A stretch of 64,000 nt of DNA from Nitrospinaceae bacterium (lineage in GTDB: Bacteria; UBA8248): assembly GCA_018669005.1 (NCBI GenBank), contig JABJAL010000020.1, positions 3,117 through 67,116 on the forward strand, in the 5' to 3' direction. Shown piece after piece: positions 3,325 through 43,580 of this stretch (its first letter is position 1; each line of letters begins with the position of its first letter). Made by a program: the position numbers and the translations under genes. The notes beneath the pieces are model-generated. The model had not been told where the DNA came from. It did no database searches and saw nothing but the letters and a program-made list of their open reading frames with translations.

Positions 3325-5193
3325 CTATTTCACTTCGATTTTCACAACGTGGGTCGAGAAATCACTGAATATTTCACGCCAGGTAAGTTTCTTCTTTGGT
3401 TCATTTTTAGCGATAATCTTGGACATAAGATGGGCCTTGCCGAGGGCGGTAGAGGCGGCGGATATTATCGAACCAAAATACACGTGTTTCGATTTCGGGC
3501 CATTTCGCCTGTTTCGTGAAATGCCAATGAGATGGCCAAAATCATCGATAATGGGCCCCCCGCCACTCGGCCCTTCGATGGGCGCAGTGACAGTGAAGCT
3601 AGATGCCATCATGTCGAGTCCGCTAATGGATGCGATGTCACCCGAGAGGATGCTGACCTTCGTCTCCACGGGAAACCCGATGGCGTGGACCCGCATGCCG
3701 GGTCGGGCCTTGGTGTCGGGATCTATGTGAAATCCCTTTTTTTCAGGGCCAAATTTCTCAAGCATCACTATGGCAATGTTGTTTTTCTGATCGCTCGCAA
3801 CAATTTCGCCTGAGAATGATTTCCCGCTGGGATAAATAGCGCGTATGTTCTTTGCCCCTATCACGAAATTCAGATTCGTCATTATGTGCGCCGTGCCTCC
3901 GAGATAGTATCCCAAGCCAGCAAAGCGCCATCCCGCCATTGTAGAAACATGTTCCCCCGCCCCTTTTTTGAGGGTGCCTAACCCTTCAACCGACTTTTTA
4001 TGGATCCACCCAATTTCTTTGCCACTCTCGGACACCTGAAGCCAGCCCCCGGGAATTGTGCCAACCACATGAATATTCTCACCCAGAGTACTGCGTTTTA
4101 GAGCACGGCCCGATTTTTCGGGTATGTCATATATTGCCGCCTCTTCAACAACACGATAGTCCTTATCTTCTTTTCGAATTTTTCCAAAAAGGGATTTCAT
4201 TCTGTCTGCTTGAATTTTTCGCGAGATGATGCGGGATATCTCAATATGATTACGTTTTAGAGCAACGATGAGAGCCGTTTCGCCAAATACGTTTTTGCTG
4301 AACAAATTGGCACCTGCGGCGACAAGCGCCTTGACGATTTCGATGGACTCCTTTTTATTGTGGTCAAGCCAATCGGAAACGGCAACGAGTAGAGCCGTGT
4401 CTCCGTCAAATTTTTTCGCATTCACATCGGCGCCCGCCCGGATGAGGGCCAGCGTTATCTCGGCGCGCCTTTGAGCAACCGCTCGAAGGAGCGGCGTGTC
4501 TTCGTTTTCGGTTTTCGCATTCAAATCGGCCCCGGCCTCAACCTGGGCGTTTACCGCTTTAATGTTATTATTATGAATTGCCAAAAAGAGAGGTGTATTA
4601 CCGGATGCGTCCCGCGTGCCCAGGTCCGCCCCCGCCTTGATGAGCATCTGCATGATCAATTGGTTCTTGCCTGTAATTGCCCGGCTCAGGGCGGTAGCGC
4701 CGCTCTTGCCCTTTGCATTGATATCAGCCCCGCCGTCTATCAATGTTTTCGCCATTTCGACATTGCCCTCCTGGACAACGCGAATAAGAGCCGTGTGGCC
4801 CTCTTCATTTCTGATGTTTAAGTCGGCACCTGCTTTTATCAGGAGGTTGGCAATTTCGCTGTCATCGTTTCGAACCGCCCAAATCAGAGCGGTGTCCCCA
4901 AGATCGGTTTTTTGATTGAGGTCGGCATTAGCTTTGATGAGTGCTTTAACAATTGAAGCATGTTTTTTATGCGCCGCCCAGATTAAAGGGGTAAAGTTGT
5001 CCTTGTCTTTTACATTCAAATCCGCCCCGGCCTGAATAAGAATATTAACGGCCTGAAGTTTGCCCCCCTGGGCGGCATCTATCAGGACGGATCTGGCGCT
5101 TCCACCACACCCGGCGACGAGACCGCAAATGAGAAATAAGCAAACAAAAAGCACAGAGGTTCGTTGCTTGCGAAATGAAACTAATGTTCTCAT
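3325..5193 (-). CDS. Lipoprotein with N-terminal ankyrin-repeat array and C-terminal trypsin-like (S1C/DegP-like) peptidase domain
   Basis: The signal peptide and lipobox are FLICGLVAGC. At least 8 ankyrin repeats match the consensus (TPLIWAA..G..ivkaLIkaGADLN). The C-terminus has a GTAHIM...GPSGGGPII serine-protease signature. An RBS AGGAG lies 5 nt upstream of the second ATG (5193). GC is ~45 %. Confidence 0.7.
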   Translation of the reverse strand: MRTLVSFRKQRTSVLFVCLFLICGLVAGCGGSARSVLIDAAQGGKLQAVNILIQAGADLNVKDKDNFTPLIWAAHKKHASIVKALIKANADLNQKTDLGDTALIWAVRNDDSEIANLLIKAGADLNIRNEEGHTALIRVVQEGNVEMAKTLIDGGADINAKGKSGATALSRAITGKNQLIMQMLIKAGADLGTRDASGNTPLFLAIHNNNIKAVNAQVEAGADLNAKTENEDTPLLRAVAQRRAEITLALIRAGADVNAKKFDGDTALLVAVSDWLDHNKKESIEIVKALVAAGANLFSKNVFGETALIVALKRNHIEISRIISRKIQADRMKSLFGKIRKEDKDYRVVEEAAIYDIPEKSGRALKRSTLGENIHVVGTIPGGWLQVSESGKEIGWIHKKSVEGLGTLKKGAGEHVSTMAGWRFAGLGYYLGGTAHIMTNLNFVIGAKNIRAIYPSGKSFSGEIVASDQKNNIAIVMLEKFGPEKKGFHIDPDTKARPGMRVHAIGFPVETKVSILSGDIASISGLDMMASSFTVTAPIEGPSGGGPIIDDFGHLIGISRNRRNGPKSKHVYFGSIISAASTALGKAHLMSKIIAKNEPKKKLTWREIFSDFSTHVVKIEVK

Positions 5194-5480
5194 TTGTTCT
5201 CCTTTCATAAGAAAATAAATATATCATCGGATAAAAGAGATGCCCACTCCATCAGGATGACCTCTCGCTCTCAGGATAGGCGGGGAAAAGGCAAATCCAA
5301 ATAAATTTCAATCACCAAGACTCTGGAAATTCGAGTTTACAGGATGTAACTTTAAGAAAGGCGATCTATAATTTGCCATAGGCAGTTTTTCCGGGTGCCC
5401 TCCCCATCTGCCAAATTATTCGATATGGGCCGCCATCCTGGGGAAAAAGTAAAAAGGAGCATTTCGTGCATATACAAAAA

Positions 5481-5936
5481 ATGAAATGGTGGATGATTCT
5501 ATTAGGCGCAATCATCGTCGGCAGCATCACCTTTTTGGGGAGTCCGTCAAATTCCACGGGCAATGAGATTACAGTTTACAAGAGCCCAACGTGAGGATGC
5601 TGTTCGGGGTGGGTGGGTCACCTACAATCAAAAGGCTTCAAAGTCACGACAAACAACGTTTCCAATAAACAGCTCAGAGTCCTCAAACAGGAGCTTGGGG
5701 TCCCCTCTCGACTGCAATCATGCCACACCGGGATGATCGGCAAATACATTATCGAGGGACATGTGCCGGGCGATGTCATTCTCAAATTCTTGAAGGAAAA
5801 ACCCGAGTTCGCTGGCCTTGGGGTGCCCGGCATGCCGCCCGGCTCGCCGGGGATGGGGAGCAAAGGCCGGCCCTATACCGTATTCAGTTTTGATAAAATT
5901 GGCGGTGTTAAGCCCTACCAGCAGATAAATCCCTAG
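5481..5936 (+). CDS. copG: CopG/DUF411 copper-binding protein with in-frame TGA (candidate selenocysteine) at 5592..5594
   Basis: ATG 5481 (alternative GTG 5466 with AGGAGC 5 nt upstream) is in frame through TGA 5592-5594 with the ORF 5613..5936. The translation MKWWMILLGAIIVGSITFLGS...ITVYKSPT-U-GCCSGWVGHL...SCHTG...EGHVP...GVPGMPPGSPGM matches DUF411/CopG. The conserved columns are VYKSPTCGCCxxW, SCHT, EGHVP and PGMPxGSPGM. The TGA sits on Cys1 of CxCC. Confidence 0.55.
5592..5594 (+). other. In-frame UGA codon, putative Sec codon of CopG
   Basis: It is in frame with the upstream ATG/GTG and the downstream ORF, and its position equals the first Cys of the CopG CxCC motif. Confidence 0.5.
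5609..5625 (+). other. Candidate bacterial SECIS hairpin (7-bp stem, apical GGU/GGGUC loop) starting 15 nt after UGA
   Basis: GUGGGUG-GGU-CACCUAC forms the pairs G5609-C5625, U-A, G-U, G-C, G-C, U-A and G-C. The apical loop contains G and U 22-24 nt downstream of the UGA. Confidence 0.4.
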
Positions 5937-13895: not shown

Positions 13896-16800
13896 ATGCA
13901 TAGCCGCCGAATCACAAGAAAACTCACAGGTTTTTTAGTATGTAGCATTTTGGCGCTTGGTGTATCGAATGCCAACGCGGCCAACAATGCTGCGGACTTA
14001 GCGATGGAGCTGGCCAAGGCGCTCAAAGTGTCGGCGGCCAATGCCCCAGCTGCGCTTAAAGCACTACAGGGACGAGGCATCATACCTGTCGAGGTTTTTT
14101 CAGGCGATCCGGTTACCTCCAACGTGGCGCAGACAATCGCCACTGGTCTAATTAAATCAGGCATCAAACCCCCGGAGGCGGCAAAAACGCTAGCCGCCGC
14201 CGCCGCTGCCGCATCAGTCCCCCTCCAGGATGCGGTGCAGGGTGCCGTCAAGGCCGCCATTGCTGCGGGGGCCGATGTCGCCGCCGTGACAAAGGCTGCC
14301 TCCGAGGGTGCCGTCAAGGGCTCAACGGCCCAGGTCTCAGGCCCTATGACCAAGGGCAGATATATCAAACGAAACTTTCTCAACAAGGACACGCGCTCTG
14401 ACGCCGCCGCCGCCTACGTTCCCAAGGGCAAGGCAAATTTTGAAGCTGTGGTGGCGGAAATTGCAGCCAAGGGAGAGAATAGCTTTGCTGGCAGCAAGGC
14501 CTCAGATCCCCTCACACGCGCCGACTTCCTGACCTTGAGATACCTTCAGGTAGGCGGCAAACCGGGCGCGGTCATCGGCGATAAAAAACGCCTCCTCAAG
14601 AAAAAAGGACTCATCGCCTCCGAGGACATCGGACAGGTCAAATCATTCCAGGGCGATGCTACCCTCACGCACCCCGGCTCAGAAAAATCAATCAAGATCA
14701 CGGGCAACGAGGCGATTCTCTATAAGGATGTAGGAGAAACTGAGCTCGACGCACGAATCGAACTGCTCTTCGACGATGGCAGCACACTCACCATCAGTGA
14801 GGACACAGCGCTCACCATCGACGAAATGATCTACAATCCGAAGACCAAATACCGCTCGATCAAGCTGCGAGTGAAGTCGGGAACAATTCACGTTAAGACG
14901 GCGAAGAACAGCAACCCGAAATCGAAATTCTCAATTGTCACACCGACCGTCGTTGCCGGACTCCGGGGAACAGACGTTTACATGAACGTCACCCCCACCG
15001 GCGCATCACGGGTCACTTCGAACACAGGCGCGAACGCGGGTAACGTTGTCATGCGAGCCGCCACCGTTTCCGACCGACCGCCACCAGCGACGACGCCAAC
15101 CCCTGGCACACCCCCGCTTGCAGCCACCCCGGCCCAGGCGCCGCCAGGGGTCACGGTCACCCCCGGCAACGGCTCCAGCGCCGCACCCGGCGCGACAACC
15201 GCCTCGCCCCCCGCGCCGCCCACCCCGGCGCAGAATCAGGCCGACGCCGCCGCGACAACCATTACAAATCCCGGCACGCCTCAGGCCGTATCGGTGGCAG
15301 GTGATGCCGCCGGGTCTGCTGCGCTAGCCGCAGCGAGCGGTGCCGTGCAGGCCGCCCAGGCGGCAGGCGTGAACGTTGGTCCTGTCGCTAATGCCGCTGC
15401 CCAAGGTGCGATGACAGGCGCGCAAGCCGCTGGCGCGGGTGGTGCCGCCGGTATCATCGCCAACGCATCCGCGAACGGCGCGGTCTCCGGCGCGCAAGTC
15501 TCAGGCGCCAACGTGGCAGCCGCCGCTAACGCCTCATCTCAAGGCTCGATTCAGGGCGCCCAAGCAGTAGGTGCGAACGCCAACGCCGCAGCCGCGGGCG
15601 CAAGCAACGGGGCCGTCCTCGGCGCACAGTCCTCCGGCGCCAACATGGCCGCCGTCGCCAACGCTTCCGCGCAGGGCGCGATGCAGGCGGCGCAATCCTC
15701 GGGCGCGAATTTGGCCGCCATCGCCAATGCCTCCGCGCAGGGCGCGATGCAGGGCGCCGAGGTCTCGGGCGCCAACGCAAGTGCCGTCGCGAATGCTGCG
15801 GCCCAGGGCTCGATGCAGGCCGCCGTCGCAGGTGGCTCGAACGTGGCAGCCATCGCCAACGCTACGGCGCAGGGCGTCGTTGCAGCGGCACAGGCCATGG
15901 GCGGCAACGCCGGAGCCATGTCACAAGCCGCATCAAGCGGCGCCATCGCGGCTGCCCAGGCAGCAGGCGCAAATGTAACCGTAATCGCCACCGCCGTCGC
16001 TTCAGGCGCCGTGGCATCCGCACAATTAAATAACGCCAACGTCGGGGCGATCGCCCAGGCGGCATCGTCAGGCGCGATGCAGGCCGCCTCACAGTTCGCT
16101 CCAGGCGCTCCTGGTGCCCCCGCGGGTGCGGCTAGCTTCGCGAGTGCTATCGCGAATGCGATGGCACAGGGTGCAATGGCCGGAGCGCAGGCAGGGGGCG
16201 CCAACATCGGCGCCGTCGCGCATGGAACCTCCGCCGGCAGCATCGCTGGTGCCCAAGCGGGCGGCATGGACGTTGGCAGCATCGCCCAGGCGATGTCCCA
16301 GGGCCTGACCCAGGGGGCCGGCGCGGCTAACGCTGGCGTCGTGGCTCAGGCCGCATTGACGGGGGCCGTGCAGGCCGCCGCCGCATCCGGCGCGAACGTG
16401 AACGCAATCGCCGCAGCGACATCGACCGGCTCCGTTCAGGCCGCCGCCGCTGCGGGAATCAACATTTCGGTAATAGTTCAGGCGTCATCGGCGGGCGTGG
16501 TATCGGGTGCCGCCTCCATCCAGCAGGCGCAGGCCCAGGGTCAGTCCCTTGCCGGGCTGTTTAGCGGCTCCACCGGAGCGGCTGGCGAACTCGGTGCCTC
16601 CGGTGCCCCCAATGTACCCGGTGCCCCCGGCGTACCCGGCGGACCGGGCGGTCCTCCCACGGCATTTACAATCAACACCACCGCCATCGCACAAGCAGCG
16701 ACTGGCGCAATGGTCCAGGCAATGATGCAGGCAGGACCAGGAGGTCCTGGTGGTCAAGGTGGACCAACGAATATAGCCGCTATCGTTCAAGCCGCCGCAC

Positions 16801-18164
16801 AGGGCGCGGCATCTGCGGCGGCATTTGCCGCAGCCGCAGGAGGCGGTCCGGGCGGTCCCGGTGGACCTGGCGGGCCGGGTAGTCCGGGCGGGCCGGGTGG
16901 ATTTGACGTTGCCTCGTTTGCCCAATCTATCGCCCAGGCGGGTGCTCAGGCATTTCAAGCAGGACCCGGCGGGCCGGGTGGTCCCGGCGGGCCAGTAAAT
17001 ATAGACATCGCCGCTATCACGAGTTCAGTAACCACTCAGACACAGGCGTTCGTCGCACAGGCCCAGGCGGCCGGTGCCTTCAGCGGTCCTGGTGGACCGG
17101 TTCCGGGTGGATTCGCCGGCCCACCACCACCAGGCACTAGCTTTGCCGGCCTTCCGGGAGATCCGGGCGGCGCTCCCGGCGAAGGCGGTGATCCCGGCGC
17201 CTTTATCGCACCTCCTCCTGGTGGCTTCGTCGGCCCTGCTCCCGACGGCTCGACATTTGTTCCGCTCGATTCCCTAGCGACGGACACCACCCTCATCAAT
17301 TTGATCATAGAGGGCGCCACTGCCGAGGAAATCGCTGCAAGCATCATCTCTGGGTCAGTAGGCGATAGCACACTCACCACCACTGTTCAGACAACTACGG
17401 TGGAGGCAGAAGAACCGCCGGTGATTCTCAGGGACTCCCTCGATCGGCAGATCGTGGGTGTTCTCCTCTCAACGGCGCCGGACGGCACCACCGCCGAGAT
17501 GTTCACCTATATATTCGTCAAGGACAGCAACGGGATTAGCACGGTAGATGTCAAAGTGACGGTGCCAAATTCCAACATTCCTATCCCTATTTTCCAAACC
17601 TTCCAGGCATTGGTTTTCCCGGAGGAGACATTTAAATTAGGCTCCCTCATGTCCGAAGACGTGCGGAAGGAGTTTTTCGAAAAAGATCTCACCAGTTCCC
17701 TGCTGGGAACGATTCCGACAACGGGCATTACCGGCACCTATAAATTTGAGGTCTTCGAGCCGAACACGTCCACCCCGAGCATTACGAGGACTGTGCTCTT
17801 CTCGGGCGTCGCGGCACTACTTCCGAATCCTTCGGCGCCGACCGTCTCGGGTTCGGGCACCACACCCACCATCATCGGCACCGCGCTGACATCGAGCCAG
17901 CTCACGGCCGTCGGAGCCTCGGCGGCGTACTACCAAATCATCGCCGAGAACATTACTACCGGAGCTATCGAGTTTATTTTCGACGGTGTGTCTGGACCCA
18001 CCATGGCAACCGCCACTCAGCTACAGTCCGGCATCCAGGTTCCCAGCGGTTTACTCATTAGCAGCAATAGCTACCGTTTCGCGGTCCTTGCATTTGATGC
18101 ATCAACTCTTTTGGGCGCAACAAGAACTTCCGAAAGCGCTGAAGCAAGCGCATTTACACCCTAA
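13896..18164 (+). CDS. Giant secreted protein (1422 aa): signal peptide, FecR domain, Pro/Thr linker, Ala-rich 11/22-residue repeat array, Gly/Pro-rich segments, Thr-rich C-terminal domain
   Basis: The signal peptide is FLVCSILALGVSNANA. The FecR-type segment is SIVTPTVVAGLRGTDVYMNV. There are about 18 tandem 22-aa units (GANxAAxANASAQGAMQxAQxS) and GPGGPGG runs. Confidence 0.8.
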   Translation: MHSRRITRKLTGFLVCSILALGVSNANAANNAADLAMELAKALKVSAANAPAALKALQGRGIIPVEVFSGDPVTSNVAQTIATGLIKSGIKPPEAAKTLAAAAAAASVPLQDAVQGAVKAAIAAGADVAAVTKAASEGAVKGSTAQVSGPMTKGRYIKRNFLNKDTRSDAAAAYVPKGKANFEAVVAEIAAKGENSFAGSKASDPLTRADFLTLRYLQVGGKPGAVIGDKKRLLKKKGLIASEDIGQVKSFQGDATLTHPGSEKSIKITGNEAILYKDVGETELDARIELLFDDGSTLTISEDTALTIDEMIYNPKTKYRSIKLRVKSGTIHVKTAKNSNPKSKFSIVTPTVVAGLRGTDVYMNVTPTGASRVTSNTGANAGNVVMRAATVSDRPPPATTPTPGTPPLAATPAQAPPGVTVTPGNGSSAAPGATTASPPAPPTPAQNQADAAATTITNPGTPQAVSVAGDAAGSAALAAASGAVQAAQAAGVNVGPVANAAAQGAMTGAQAAGAGGAAGIIANASANGAVSGAQVSGANVAAAANASSQGSIQGAQAVGANANAAAAGASNGAVLGAQSSGANMAAVANASAQGAMQAAQSSGANLAAIANASAQGAMQGAEVSGANASAVANAAAQGSMQAAVAGGSNVAAIANATAQGVVAAAQAMGGNAGAMSQAASSGAIAAAQAAGANVTVIATAVASGAVASAQLNNANVGAIAQAASSGAMQAASQFAPGAPGAPAGAASFASAIANAMAQGAMAGAQAGGANIGAVAHGTSAGSIAGAQAGGMDVGSIAQAMSQGLTQGAGAANAGVVAQAALTGAVQAAAASGANVNAIAAATSTGSVQAAAAAGINISVIVQASSAGVVSGAASIQQAQAQGQSLAGLFSGSTGAAGELGASGAPNVPGAPGVPGGPGGPPTAFTINTTAIAQAATGAMVQAMMQAGPGGPGGQGGPTNIAAIVQAAAQGAASAAAFAAAAGGGPGGPGGPGGPGSPGGPGGFDVASFAQSIAQAGAQAFQAGPGGPGGPGGPVNIDIAAITSSVTTQTQAFVAQAQAAGAFSGPGGPVPGGFAGPPPPGTSFAGLPGDPGGAPGEGGDPGAFIAPPPGGFVGPAPDGSTFVPLDSLATDTTLINLIIEGATAEEIAASIISGSVGDSTLTTTVQTTTVEAEEPPVILRDSLDRQIVGVLLSTAPDGTTAEMFTYIFVKDSNGISTVDVKVTVPNSNIPIPIFQTFQALVFPEETFKLGSLMSEDVRKEFFEKDLTSSLLGTIPTTGITGTYKFEVFEPNTSTPSITRTVLFSGVAALLPNPSAPTVSGSGTTPTIIGTALTSSQLTAVGASAAYYQIIAENITTGAIEFIFDGVSGPTMATATQLQSGIQVPSGLLISSNSYRFAVLAFDASTLLGATRTSESAEASAFTP
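15300..16530 (+). repeat. Tandem 66-bp (22-codon, internally 2x11) coding repeat array inside the giant gene
   Basis: The nucleotide unit gccaacgcctccgcgcagggcgcgatgcaggc... is visibly repeated. The protein units consist almost only of A, G, S, N, Q, M, V and I. Confidence 0.75.
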
Positions 18165-18250: not shown

Positions 18251-18336
18251 CTTTCAATCACAAGGGGTGATTAAGTAGTATGGACAGGTACGATCGGCGC
18301 ACGCTAATAAAAACCACCCGCGGGAGAATAAGAAGC

Positions 18337-19827
18337 ATGACATCAACACTAAAATTACTCGCGATACAAATAATCTCTGCGGGATTAATCACAGCCCCCG
18401 TATTTGCGGCTACCGGGCCTCTCACAGAGGCGAAACAACTCGAGGCCCAGGCAACTAAACACCTAAACGCCAAGAACATAGACACCGCAATACCCCTCCT
18501 GCGCCGCGCTCTCGAGCTTCTCGAGAAAAAACTCGGCCCCGCACATCCCCGCCTGGCATCGACCCTTGGTAACTTGGCAATTGTTCAGCAAATGAAAGGG
18601 CGCAATGCCGAGGCGCTCTCGTTATTCAGCCGCGCACTCAAGATTCGCGAGAAAGCGCTGGGCGCCGAGCATCCAAAAGTCGCCGACACTCTCAACAACA
18701 TCGGCGGCTTTCTTCAATCGCAGGGCAAACAAAAAAAAGCGGCTGCCTTTTTCCGGCGTGCCCTCGCCATCCGAGAAAAAAAGCTTGGTCGCTACCATCT
18801 CAAAGTGGGTCGGAGCCTCAAGAAATTAGCCGACATCTACCGACTTCAACAAAAATACAGCCAGGCCGAGCCTCTCTACCGGCGAGCCCTCGCGGTTTTT
18901 GACAAAACCCTGCCCCCCGGGCACACCAAGATCACCGAAACCCTCGAGTTCCTGACATTGTCGATGTTTCCGCAACGAAAATTCCTGTCCGCAGAACCTC
19001 TTCTTAAGCGCCTGCTCGCCTTACAGGAAAAATATCTGGGCAAGGAGCACATCGTGATTTCCAAGACTCTCAATAATCTGGCCATCTCCCTGAGAATCAA
19101 GGGAAATCTGCCAGTCGCCGAGGGACTCCTTCGGCGCTCTTTGGCTATCGTTCAGAAAAACCTGGGGCCCAACAATCTCCATGTCGCAGTAGGTCTGAAT
19201 AATCTCGCTGATATCTATCAGATACAAGGCTTACTGCCGAAGGCCGAACTTCTCTATATCGCTTCCATGAAAATGCGGGAAAAAATTCTGGGCGACAGGA
19301 GCCCGCAAGTGCTTTTTTCCCTGAATAATCTTACCAGTCTCTACCTCAAGCAAAGAAAATATGACAAGGCTGAACCTATCCTGAAGCGGGTACTCGACAT
19401 TCACACAAAAACACTTGGGCCCAAGCACCCTCGCGTCGCCTCAAGCCTCGCCTTTTTAGGGAACCTTTACCTGCGCAAGGGCGAATTCGAAAAATCCGTG
19501 GCACATCATCAGCGTGCCCTTGAAATTCGCGAGAAGATATATGGCTCAGATCATCCCGAGGTGGCCAAGAGTCTTCATCAACTGGCAACCAGCTACATTT
19601 TTCAGGTTGACCCCGGCAAATTCCGCGAGGCGGCAGATTTACTAAAACGAGCGCTGCGTATCCGGCAGAAAAAATTCAGCAAGAACCACCCGGCCATCGC
19701 TCTAACTCTCGAATCCTTAGCCCTTCTCTACAAAACCAACGAGAGGGACGGAAAACGATTTTCGGAAAGAGCCAAAATTATCCGGAGTAATATCAAGAAG
19801 AACAAAAAGAAAAAAACAAAACGCTAA
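18337..19827 (+). CDS. Secreted tetratricopeptide-repeat protein (TPR_10/TPR_12, kinesin-light-chain-like)
   Basis: The signal peptide is LLAIQIISAGLITAPVFAA. More than 10 repeats of the pattern A..L.nLa.lY..qGry.eAeplyrrALai.ek.lG..HP are present. Confidence 0.75.
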   Translation: MTSTLKLLAIQIISAGLITAPVFAATGPLTEAKQLEAQATKHLNAKNIDTAIPLLRRALELLEKKLGPAHPRLASTLGNLAIVQQMKGRNAEALSLFSRALKIREKALGAEHPKVADTLNNIGGFLQSQGKQKKAAAFFRRALAIREKKLGRYHLKVGRSLKKLADIYRLQQKYSQAEPLYRRALAVFDKTLPPGHTKITETLEFLTLSMFPQRKFLSAEPLLKRLLALQEKYLGKEHIVISKTLNNLAISLRIKGNLPVAEGLLRRSLAIVQKNLGPNNLHVAVGLNNLADIYQIQGLLPKAELLYIASMKMREKILGDRSPQVLFSLNNLTSLYLKQRKYDKAEPILKRVLDIHTKTLGPKHPRVASSLAFLGNLYLRKGEFEKSVAHHQRALEIREKIYGSDHPEVAKSLHQLATSYIFQVDPGKFREAADLLKRALRIRQKKFSKNHPAIALTLESLALLYKTNERDGKRFSERAKIIRSNIKKNKKKKTKR

Positions 19828-42926: not shown

Positions 42927-43580
42927 ATGGCAAGAGTTCCGCTGCTAACCCCCGAGGATGCCCAAGGAGAGGTAGCGCGCACCTTCGAGATATTTGGCAA
43001 ATTCCAGAAGCGCAATGTCCACTCCGTGCGCGCAACGGCCAACTCGCCGTTTCTCGCCCGGATTTTCTACCCCCTCGTACAGACCTTGATGCGCGAGGGC
43101 CTGGGGACCGTCCTCTCCTCAAAGCTCAAGGAGATTGCCACCATCAAGACCAGCCAGCTAAACGGCTGCGACTACTGACTTCTCCACAACACCATGCTCG
43201 GCCGGGCGCTGGGCATCACCGATGAAATGGTCGAGGCCATTGGTTCCGATAACTATATGGACTCGCCCCTGCTCACTGATCGTGAAAAGGCCACCGTCCT
43301 ATGGGCCGAACACGTCACCCTCAACACAGCCAAACACCGCGACGACATCGCCGCCGAGGTGCAAAAACATTTCTCCGACCAAGAGTTTGTCGAGCTCACC
43401 TTCGTGACCAGCTACTTCAACATGCGTAACCGCTACCACGATTCGCTCCAGCTACCCCTCGATGAGGTCGAAGTTGCCGGGGACATCAGTCGCCTCCGGC
43501 CGGATCCAGACAAACTCAAATCATTTCTGCAAAATATTCTCGACAACTGGCCCGACAAATTCCCCGAGCCAAACGATTAA
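42927..43580 (+). CDS. AhpD-like / carboxymuconolactone-decarboxylase family selenoprotein (in-frame TGA at 43176..43178, CxxU motif)
   Basis: The ORFs 42927..43178 and 43194..43580 share one frame and are joined by the single TGA. The context ...QLNGCDY-U-LLHNT equals the CMD/AhpD C-x-x-C-x-x-H catalytic motif, with Cys2 replaced by U. Confidence 0.65.
43194..43216 (+). other. Candidate bacterial SECIS hairpin (9-bp stem incl. 2 G-U pairs, CGGGC loop) starting 15 nt after UGA
   Basis: AUGCUCGGC-CGGGC-GCUGGGCAU. Confidence 0.45.

Follow-up and report, generated by a model that had tools for sequence, protein, structure and literature searches.

The question raised by the locus described here is whether the in-frame UGA at positions 5592-5594 of a 64-kb stretch of DNA from a Nitrospinaceae bacterium (contig JABJAL010000020.1) ends a gene of the DUF411/CopG family of copper proteins, or is translated within it as selenocysteine (Sec). 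In what follows, the window is the whole 64-kb stretch, coordinates are window positions unless a related locus is named, and related loci and related proteins carry numbers preceded by L and P, respectively. An initial annotation, made from the letters of the window alone, had proposed a new selenoprotein in which Sec takes the place of the first Cys of the CxCC motif. Based on the conservation of this UGA among relatives, on a natural exchange of TGA for a Cys codon, on a hairpin that is specific to the Sec forms and on other apparent selenoprotein genes in the window and in related loci, we consider it highly probable that the UGA encodes Sec. The residual doubt comes from the Sec machinery, which was not found in the window or in the fetched loci, and from the hairpin, which has no support from compensatory changes.

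Reading frame, protein family and predicted fold

When the coordinates were re-read, the frame that had been proposed, starting at GTG 5466 (or at the alternative start ATG 5481) and reaching 5936, was recovered with TGA 5592-5594 as its single interruption, and the AGGAG-type ribosome-binding site described ahead of the GTG was likewise located (Table 1). An ATG at the equivalent codon in L014 favours GTG 5466 over ATG 5481 as the putative start. Translation yields, in this order, the hydrophobic segment WWMILLGAIIVGSITFLG, ITVYKSPT-[UGA]-GCCSGWVGHL, SCHT, EGHVP and GVPGMPPGSPGM, which is the conceptual product, with hydrophobic segment and DUF411 motifs, that the initial annotation had put forward. 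The hydrophobic N-terminal stretch is retained in the relatives, where it is under purifying selection.

With Cys replacing the stop, this product matches the Pfam family DUF411 (PF04214) with 78.6 bits against a cut-off of 27 (E = 2.9e-22), and its residues 35-144 align with CopG in the PDB entry 6WIS (E = 3.3e-26), the family motifs being in register, which bears out the family assignment made at the outset. The UGA aligns with C13 of the C13-G-C-C16 motif of CopG in 6WIS, and in an alignment of 70 sequences its column is an invariant Cys in the 69 homologs, G44, C45 and C46 being likewise invariant; the placement of the TGA on the first metal-ligand Cys is thereby upheld. The other invariant positions of this alignment are C86, H87, T88, E97, G98, H99, P101, G122, M123, P128, G129 and M130. 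In the window, the CxCC motif is seen as U(TGA)-G-C-C, with Cys at positions 3 and 4 and the UGA at position 1, and it is complete only if the UGA is read as Sec or Cys.

A structure model was made for the Cys-containing sibling P0010, the window protein being tied to 6WIS by sequence alignment. This AlphaFold2 (AF2) model (predicted local distance difference test, pLDDT, 89.4) matches 6WJE/6WIS in Foldseek with a template modelling (TM) score of 0.89-0.90 and a root mean square deviation (rmsd) of 1.5-1.7 A, the next matches being thioredoxins, and its first Cys lies between strand 1 and helix 1, at the position of the nucleophilic Cys of the thioredoxin (Trx) CxxC. The window protein is predicted to be a CopG-type thioredoxin-fold protein with a C-terminal extension and, because the first Cys of the P0010 model sits at the Trx CxxC position, UGCC would be at the same time the CxCC copper-cluster motif and a UxxC motif. 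Within the family, P0002 (230 amino acids (aa), from JGI) is a tandem DUF411 protein, in which a first copy that lacks the N-terminus is fused to a second, complete one, whose motif reads CACC rather than CGCC.

Conservation of the UGA and a natural Sec/Cys exchange

In the database, the ten nearest relatives (62-98% identity) are without exception called as proteins of 107-108 aa and match no more than the C-terminal 69% of the query. When their contigs were translated upstream of the called start, TGA was found at the identical codon in every one; the frame ahead of it is open and conserved (a basic n-region, a hydrophobic segment and then [IV]xV[YI]K/ANPT), and the spacing and frame between the upstream and downstream parts are constant in all of these relatives. 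Altogether, with the further lineages that a metagenome scan brought in, TGA stands at this codon in 32 metagenomic loci, which represent 15 DNA variants (57-98% identical) from about nine lineages and three subclades: subclade A, with the window, L001, L008, L014, L018, L019 and others; subclade B, with L021 and L034; and subclade C, with L031 and L033, two loci from different sample series. The stop at this codon is always TGA (32 of the 32 stop-bearing loci), and the remaining 72 motif matches (57 distinct variants) have TGC or TGT there. The samples and assemblers behind the TGA contigs are independent (ENA, JGI, Logan, NCBI), and L007 and L037 are the same as the window over the 105 nucleotides (nt) compared around the TGA. 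The samples to which these two loci and the 183-kb contig L001 lead are ERZ4200979 and ERZ24794642. Close relatives carrying both the TGA and the same hairpin, which the initial annotation had named as a check on its proposal, were seen in the DNA of these fetched loci; a scan of genome contigs returned four distant Cys forms only and no close relative.

Selection acts on both sides of the codon. The ratio of nonsynonymous to synonymous divergence (dN/dS, Nei-Gojobori) is 0.15-0.67 over the 36 codons upstream of the TGA and 0.08-0.29 downstream, with a synonymous divergence (pS) of up to ~0.8 between subclades, and the combination of a low upstream ratio with a high pS implies that the N-terminal part has long been translated in frame with the rest. 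A conserved TGA with selection on either side of it is, in our view, what excludes a pseudogene, a sequencing error or a short ORF (open reading frame) followed by a truncated DUF411 gene, apart from the small residual probabilities given below.

A direct exchange between the two residues is seen in subclade B, within which the Cys protein P0010 is placed in a rough neighbour-joining (NJ) tree. Its gene, L107, has 93% nucleotide identity to L034 and carries TGC where L034 and L021 (89%) carry TGA. Near-identical orthologs that differ by TGA and TGC at a conserved Cys are a classical signature of Sec, and L107 appears to be a recent Sec/Cys swap, that is, a Cys revertant. At this locus (5001-5468 of the 538-kb contig ERZ28763718:ctg123088) the hairpin is still intact, and the gene is flanked by transposases (DDE_Tnp_1 and rve_3). 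The Sec forms are not monophyletic in the NJ tree, a result that, coming from a 149-column alignment, we do not accept as evidence for multiple origins of Sec.

Two minor variations were recorded among the Sec forms. In L017 (~100-130) a stop stands at an N-terminal Trp codon (…INI*MLLG…), the close relative L018 having Trp; if real, this stop would move the start to the following Met and leave a shorter n-region. In L009, L012 and L030, compared with L008, a population variant changes GCCSGW into GCCSEW (GGG to GAG), just 5' of the hairpin.

The candidate SECIS hairpin

Published rules for the bacterial selenocysteine insertion sequence (bSECIS) give a loop of 3-9 nt, an upper stem of 4-16 bp, a G in the first two loop positions and a UGA-loop distance of 16-37 nt (PMC13188914). 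The candidate hairpin downstream of the UGA lies within this geometry, with its 3-nt loop GGU, its stem of 6-7 bp and a distance of 21 nt between UGA and loop (the hairpin itself begins 15 nt after the UGA), and the spacing is, as had been claimed, the one expected for such an element. The hairpin had been described as having 7 bp. RNAfold does predict these, and the 6-bp core helix 5610-5615/5619-5624 (UGGGUG/CACCUR) is intact in 13 of 13 gaplessly aligned Sec-form segments, but relatives do not maintain the outermost pair 5609/5625, which is present in only 7 of 12 distinct Sec-form rows. The loop of the relatives is GAU, GAC, GGG, GGC or GGA.

The codons that form this helix are used in an unusual way. 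Of the 42 columns with an invariant degenerate residue, all but four use more than one codon. The stem accounts for two of the four exceptions, Val GTG and His CAC, and either of the Leu codons seen in it (CTA and CTG) is able to pair; there is free variation in the third base of the loop codon and in the Gly codon preceding the stem. Where Cys homologs have the same W-V-x-H-L residues, GTG is used in 4 of 45 cases, CAC in 18 of 38 and CTT in 18 of 29. The complete 6-bp helix is found in all 11 Sec variants versus 2 of 59 Cys variants, one of the two being the revertant L107. Judging from these comparisons, the part of the hairpin signal that rises above chance would be the comparative one: synonymous stem sites that are fixed, and a helix specific to the Sec forms.

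Probable selenocysteine decoding in the organism

The window holds a second gene with an internal TGA, the AhpD/CMD-like gene of Table 1, to which the initial annotation had also pointed on account of its like hairpin architecture. The gene is real and its hairpin comparable to that of the DUF411 gene. Against NCBIfam it gives weak matches to AhpD-type '(seleno)protein' models, all below the cut-offs, and AhpD-like CxxU proteins are a listed selenoprotein family (Table 1 of PMC13188914); read in this way, the gene would show that the genome to which the window belongs decodes UGA as Sec.

Further genes of this kind are present in related loci. In L001 (4615-5040, minus strand), two called ORFs (86 and 54 aa) belong to a single OsmC-like gene that has TGA for its catalytic Cys (…LSGLGA-U-MMGN…), and, because L001 is syntenic with the left end of the window, an OsmC-like Sec gene probably lies just outside the window in the organism of the window. 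In L014 (924-1553, plus strand), a TlpA/redoxin-like gene with TGA in WTTW-U-PWC (UxxC) stands directly downstream of the Sec-DUF411 gene, with which it may form an operon of two exported selenoproteins. In all four genes (DUF411, AhpD-, OsmC- and TlpA-like) the hairpin starts 15-18 nt after the UGA and has a G in the first two loop positions.

In other respects UGA behaves as a stop. The 57 long ORFs of the window end in TAG (25), TAA (23) and, most rarely, TGA (9), and a systematic scan of the 64 kb for read-through yielded only two credible genes, the DUF411 and the AhpD-like one. A global reassignment of UGA (codes 4 or 25) was rejected on these two counts, which imply the standard code with local recoding. 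As for the identity of the organism, the best named relatives of one window protein are in metagenome-assembled genomes (MAGs) of Nitrospinota and Tectomicrobia (72-76% identity), and BSepDB has 48-54 selenoprotein genes in 'Nitrospinota' UBA8248 MAGs (PMC13326102); such selenoprotein-rich genomes are consistent with Sec decoding here, as a hint only.

Opposing evidence and alternative readings

Several results weigh against the translation of this UGA as Sec. Neither selA, selB nor selD was found among the Pfam annotations of 30 large ORFs of the window or in the fetched loci, and tRNA-Sec was not found in the 64-kb window, which is without any tRNA, or in 27 Sec-form loci. The lineages that carry the Sec form are interrelated, so that counting them overstates their independence. 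As for the hairpin, it contains no compensatory base change: five of its seven pairs are invariant, and the sole variation in the helix is U-A to U-G. Since stem pairs do not vary, a covariation test is uninformative either way. The energy of the hairpin alone is -7.5 kcal/mol in the window and -4.6 to -6.5 kcal/mol in the relatives, at or above the SECIS threshold (a minimum free energy of -7.5 kcal/mol or less), the 45 nt after the UGA reach -9.0 to -13.3 kcal/mol, and the outcome against the threshold depends on the length counted. The folding energy is unexceptional against shuffles (z = -0.34) and the same as that of the matching stretch of Cys homologs (p = 1.0); finding no difference from either, we dropped it as an argument. 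Rfam has no match in the whole window at the gathering threshold or in 5560-5680 at E <= 10, a null result that is uninformative because Rfam models bacterial SECIS elements poorly.

To these results must be added that RNAalifold favours another, overlapping helix (9-14/20-25 plus 1-5/30-35, where alignment columns 1-35 are 5592-5626). This alternative, in which the UGA itself is paired and which would account for the invariant TGC at codon +2, cannot form together with the GGU-loop hairpin. It was rejected as a Sec-specific element, at least five of its six pairs being present in 29 of 59 Cys forms and the helix being largely dictated by the amino-acid sequence, and it may be part of the real structure. 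The folding check called for at the outset therefore gave a divided answer: the geometry is that of a bSECIS, while the energy is unexceptional, compensatory changes are absent and RNAalifold prefers the other helix.

The reading that survives best beside Sec is that the UGA is read through without any Sec machinery, a near-cognate or suppressor tRNA inserting Trp, Cys or Arg, so that the protein would be full-length and free of selenium. The conservation of both halves of the gene requires read-through and nothing else, and no Sec machinery is seen in the window, both of which suit this explanation. It leaves aside, on the other hand, that the UGA falls on an invariant Cys column and is exchanged for TGC in a near-identical relative, that a hairpin specific to the Sec forms obeys the SECIS geometry, and that TGA occurs at the catalytic Cys of known selenoprotein families in the same genome and in relatives; moreover, two read-through genes in 64 kb imply that there is no general suppression. 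We regard selenium-free read-through as improbable.

Slightly less probable still is that the TGA is a true stop, which would make the gene either a pseudogene or a 42-aa leader peptide followed by a truncated DUF411 protein of 107 aa from GTG 5613. Every gene caller gives a product of 107-108 aa, GTG 5613 does exist, and the energy of the hairpin is unremarkable. The truncated product would, however, be devoid of the signal segment and of the whole CxCC motif; the 36 upstream codons are in frame and under purifying selection, at a pS reaching 0.8; and ~9 lineages have kept the TGA without acquiring a second lesion, all loci having the two 'ORFs' at a fixed distance and in a fixed frame. A sequencing or assembly error for TGC or TGT is hardly conceivable, for although the TGA is one base away from a Cys codon, the same TGA is present in 32 contigs of independent samples and assemblers, L007 and L037 included.

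Proposed mechanism and relation to known selenoproteins

If the UGA is translated as Sec, SelB with Sec-tRNA(Sec) would bind the stem-loop 5609-5625 while the ribosome is on the UGA, and Sec would be inserted with no termination. The protein would be exported through its N-terminal hydrophobic segment, and the selenolate, which occupies the first position of the Trx-type UxxC, would act as a copper ligand and/or as a redox nucleophile. Together with C45, C46 and the methionines of PGMPxGSPGM, Sec would bind copper and/or undergo redox cycling, in the way of CopG with its Cys-bridged Cu4 cluster. Secondary sources describe the Cu4 cluster of CopG as bound by CxCC and two Met (PMC7558416) and mention an interconversion of Cu(I) and Cu(II) as the proposed activity of CopG (PMC7558416, PMC8456105); a tetranuclear Cu cluster is known only for the CopG of P. 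aeruginosa (same two sources).

The closest known system is thus the CopG of Pseudomonas aeruginosa (6WIS/6WJE), with which the window protein shares SCHT, EGHVP, PGMPxGSPGM, the Trx domain with a C-terminal extension and a predicted N-terminal export segment, and from which it differs in that the first Cys of its CxCC is encoded by UGA and in that its gene is outside a cop/cus/cueO cluster. A second point of comparison is given by the thioredoxin-fold UxxC selenoproteins (Trx, glutaredoxin (Grx), DsbA-like, TlpA-like and thiol:disulfide interchange proteins), which likewise have Sec for the N-terminal Cys of a CxxC at the junction of strand 1 and helix 1, a SECIS-type hairpin inside the coding region and Cys homologs that are far more numerous. 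The difference here is the UxCC motif of the window protein, with its extra Cys; in the characterised homolog this motif bridges the Cu4 cluster and is more than a dithiol/disulfide couple (PMC7558416). Sec in place of a metal-ligand Cys is also predicted in a heavy-metal ATPase (UxxC), the SO_0444 Cu/Zn efflux transporter (UxC), CopZ-family (2Fe-2S)-binding, YHS-domain (GxU) and MerT-like proteins (PMC13188914); these have unrelated folds, and for none of them has a polynuclear Cu cluster been solved at the corresponding Cys. The AhpD-like protein (CxxU) resembles the DUF411 protein in lying in the same window and in having a G-containing loop on a hairpin that begins 15 nt past the UGA, and differs from it in fold and chemistry and in belonging to an already listed family.

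The kind of selenoprotein is therefore already known, both as a thioredoxin-fold UxxC protein, through the Sec/Cys pair, and within the established theme of Sec in metal-handling proteins. The idea of Sec in a copper-cluster site, as first put forward, has to be toned down in this respect: the UGA does fall on the first Cys of CxCC, but UGCC is also a UxxC, the commonest motif among the prokaryotic selenoprotein families of Table 1 in PMC13188914, hence less exotic. The family appears to be a new member of the kind. The terms DUF411, PF04214, CopG, COG3019 and UxCC are absent from the 119-family Table 1 of that review (May 2026), and from the searched text of BSepDB, deep-Sep, GOS 2008 and the ISME J 2016 survey; in the literature searched, DUF411 was not found together with selenoprotein, and the co-mentions of CopG and selenocysteine are unrelated. 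NCBIfam release 20, with its curated selenoprotein models, has zero matches for the window protein, which is hence not GOS_B (NF041374) or GOS_C (NF045500). The initial remark that DUF411 is not known to be among the described selenoprotein families agrees with all of these lists, and it is very probable that DUF411/CopG is an apparently undescribed selenoprotein family of the thioredoxin-fold UxxC kind, with Sec in a copper-cluster motif. To a more far-reaching proposal we lean only slightly, namely that the family is an unrecognised one in which the selenolate of the Sec forms replaces the first bridging thiolate of the Cu4 cluster, which would be a natural Cu-Se cluster in an exported redox protein for copper, in selenoprotein-rich lineages of marine waters and groundwater and outside copper-resistance operons.

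If Sec is indeed present, a structurally characterised copper protein joins the selenoproteome, and a natural Sec variant of a Cu4 protein offers a defined place to study the effect of selenium on copper binding and on Cu(I)/Cu(II) redox chemistry; the UV-vis bands of CopG reportedly lie near 411, 581 and 721 nm. The public gene calls for the clade would all be wrong, being truncations of 107-108 aa without signal segment or metal motif, and because of this truncation the Sec forms of DUF411 are missed by annotation pipelines and by selenoprotein databases restricted to known families. Additionally, the codon choices specific to the Sec forms are a clean natural test case for SECIS recognition in bacteria.

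Features of the locus and gene neighbourhood

The coordinates of the DUF411 gene, of its elements and of the AhpD-like gene are collected in Table 1.

Table 1. Positions of the proposed Sec-containing DUF411/CopG gene, its motifs and the second TGA gene in the window.
Feature	Position	Strand	Remarks
Shine-Dalgarno-like AGGAG	5455..5459	+	6 nt 5' of GTG 5466; read from sequence
Full coding sequence, proposed Sec-containing DUF411/CopG protein	5466..5936	+	156 residues, U at residue 43; GTG start, TAG 5934-5936
Hydrophobic N-terminal segment WWMILLGAIIVGSITFLG	5487..5540	+	Residues 8-25; predicted signal peptide or signal anchor, from sequence
In-frame UGA, proposed selenocysteine codon	5592..5594	+	Residue 43
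U-G-C-C motif	5592..5603	+	Corresponds to CxCC, the copper-cluster motif of CopG, and to thioredoxin-fold UxxC
Candidate bacterial SECIS hairpin	5609..5625	+	Stem 5609-5615/5619-5625, loop GGU 5616-5618; RNAfold, 7 bp
S-C-H-T motif	5718..5729	+	Residues 85-88, C86-H87-T88 invariant; 70-sequence alignment
E-G-H-V-P motif	5754..5768	+	Residues 97-101; 70-sequence alignment
PGMPPGSPGM methionine motif	5826..5855	+	Residues 121-130, M123 and M130 invariant; alignment
AhpD/CMD-like gene	42927..43580	+	TGA 43176-43178 in C-D-Y-U (CxxU); hairpin 43194-43216, 9 bp, loop CGGGC

A location in copper-resistance clusters is a frequent association of DUF411 genes and no strict requirement of the family. 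Copper genes (copA, cusCBA, cueO/cutO) were not found beside the DUF411 gene in the window, L001, L008, L014, L031 and L034. In the window, L001 and L017/L018 the neighbours encode a VTT/DedA membrane protein, aminotransferases and an ankyrin-trypsin protein; in L008 they are cytochrome b and c genes, in L014 the Sec-containing TlpA-like redoxin gene, and in L034 and L107 a DsbA-like gene. As a speculation, such neighbourhoods might point to a broader function, in periplasmic redox or in the maturation of cuproproteins.

The gene that adjoins the DUF411 gene in the window is divergent from it (3325-5208, minus strand) and encodes a protein of 627 aa with a long array of ankyrin repeats and a C-terminal trypsin-like peptidase. 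Farther along on the plus strand, 13896-18164 encodes a protein of 1422 aa in which a FecR domain is the sole Pfam match, followed at 18280-19827 (plus strand) by a tetratricopeptide-repeat (TPR) protein of 515 aa.

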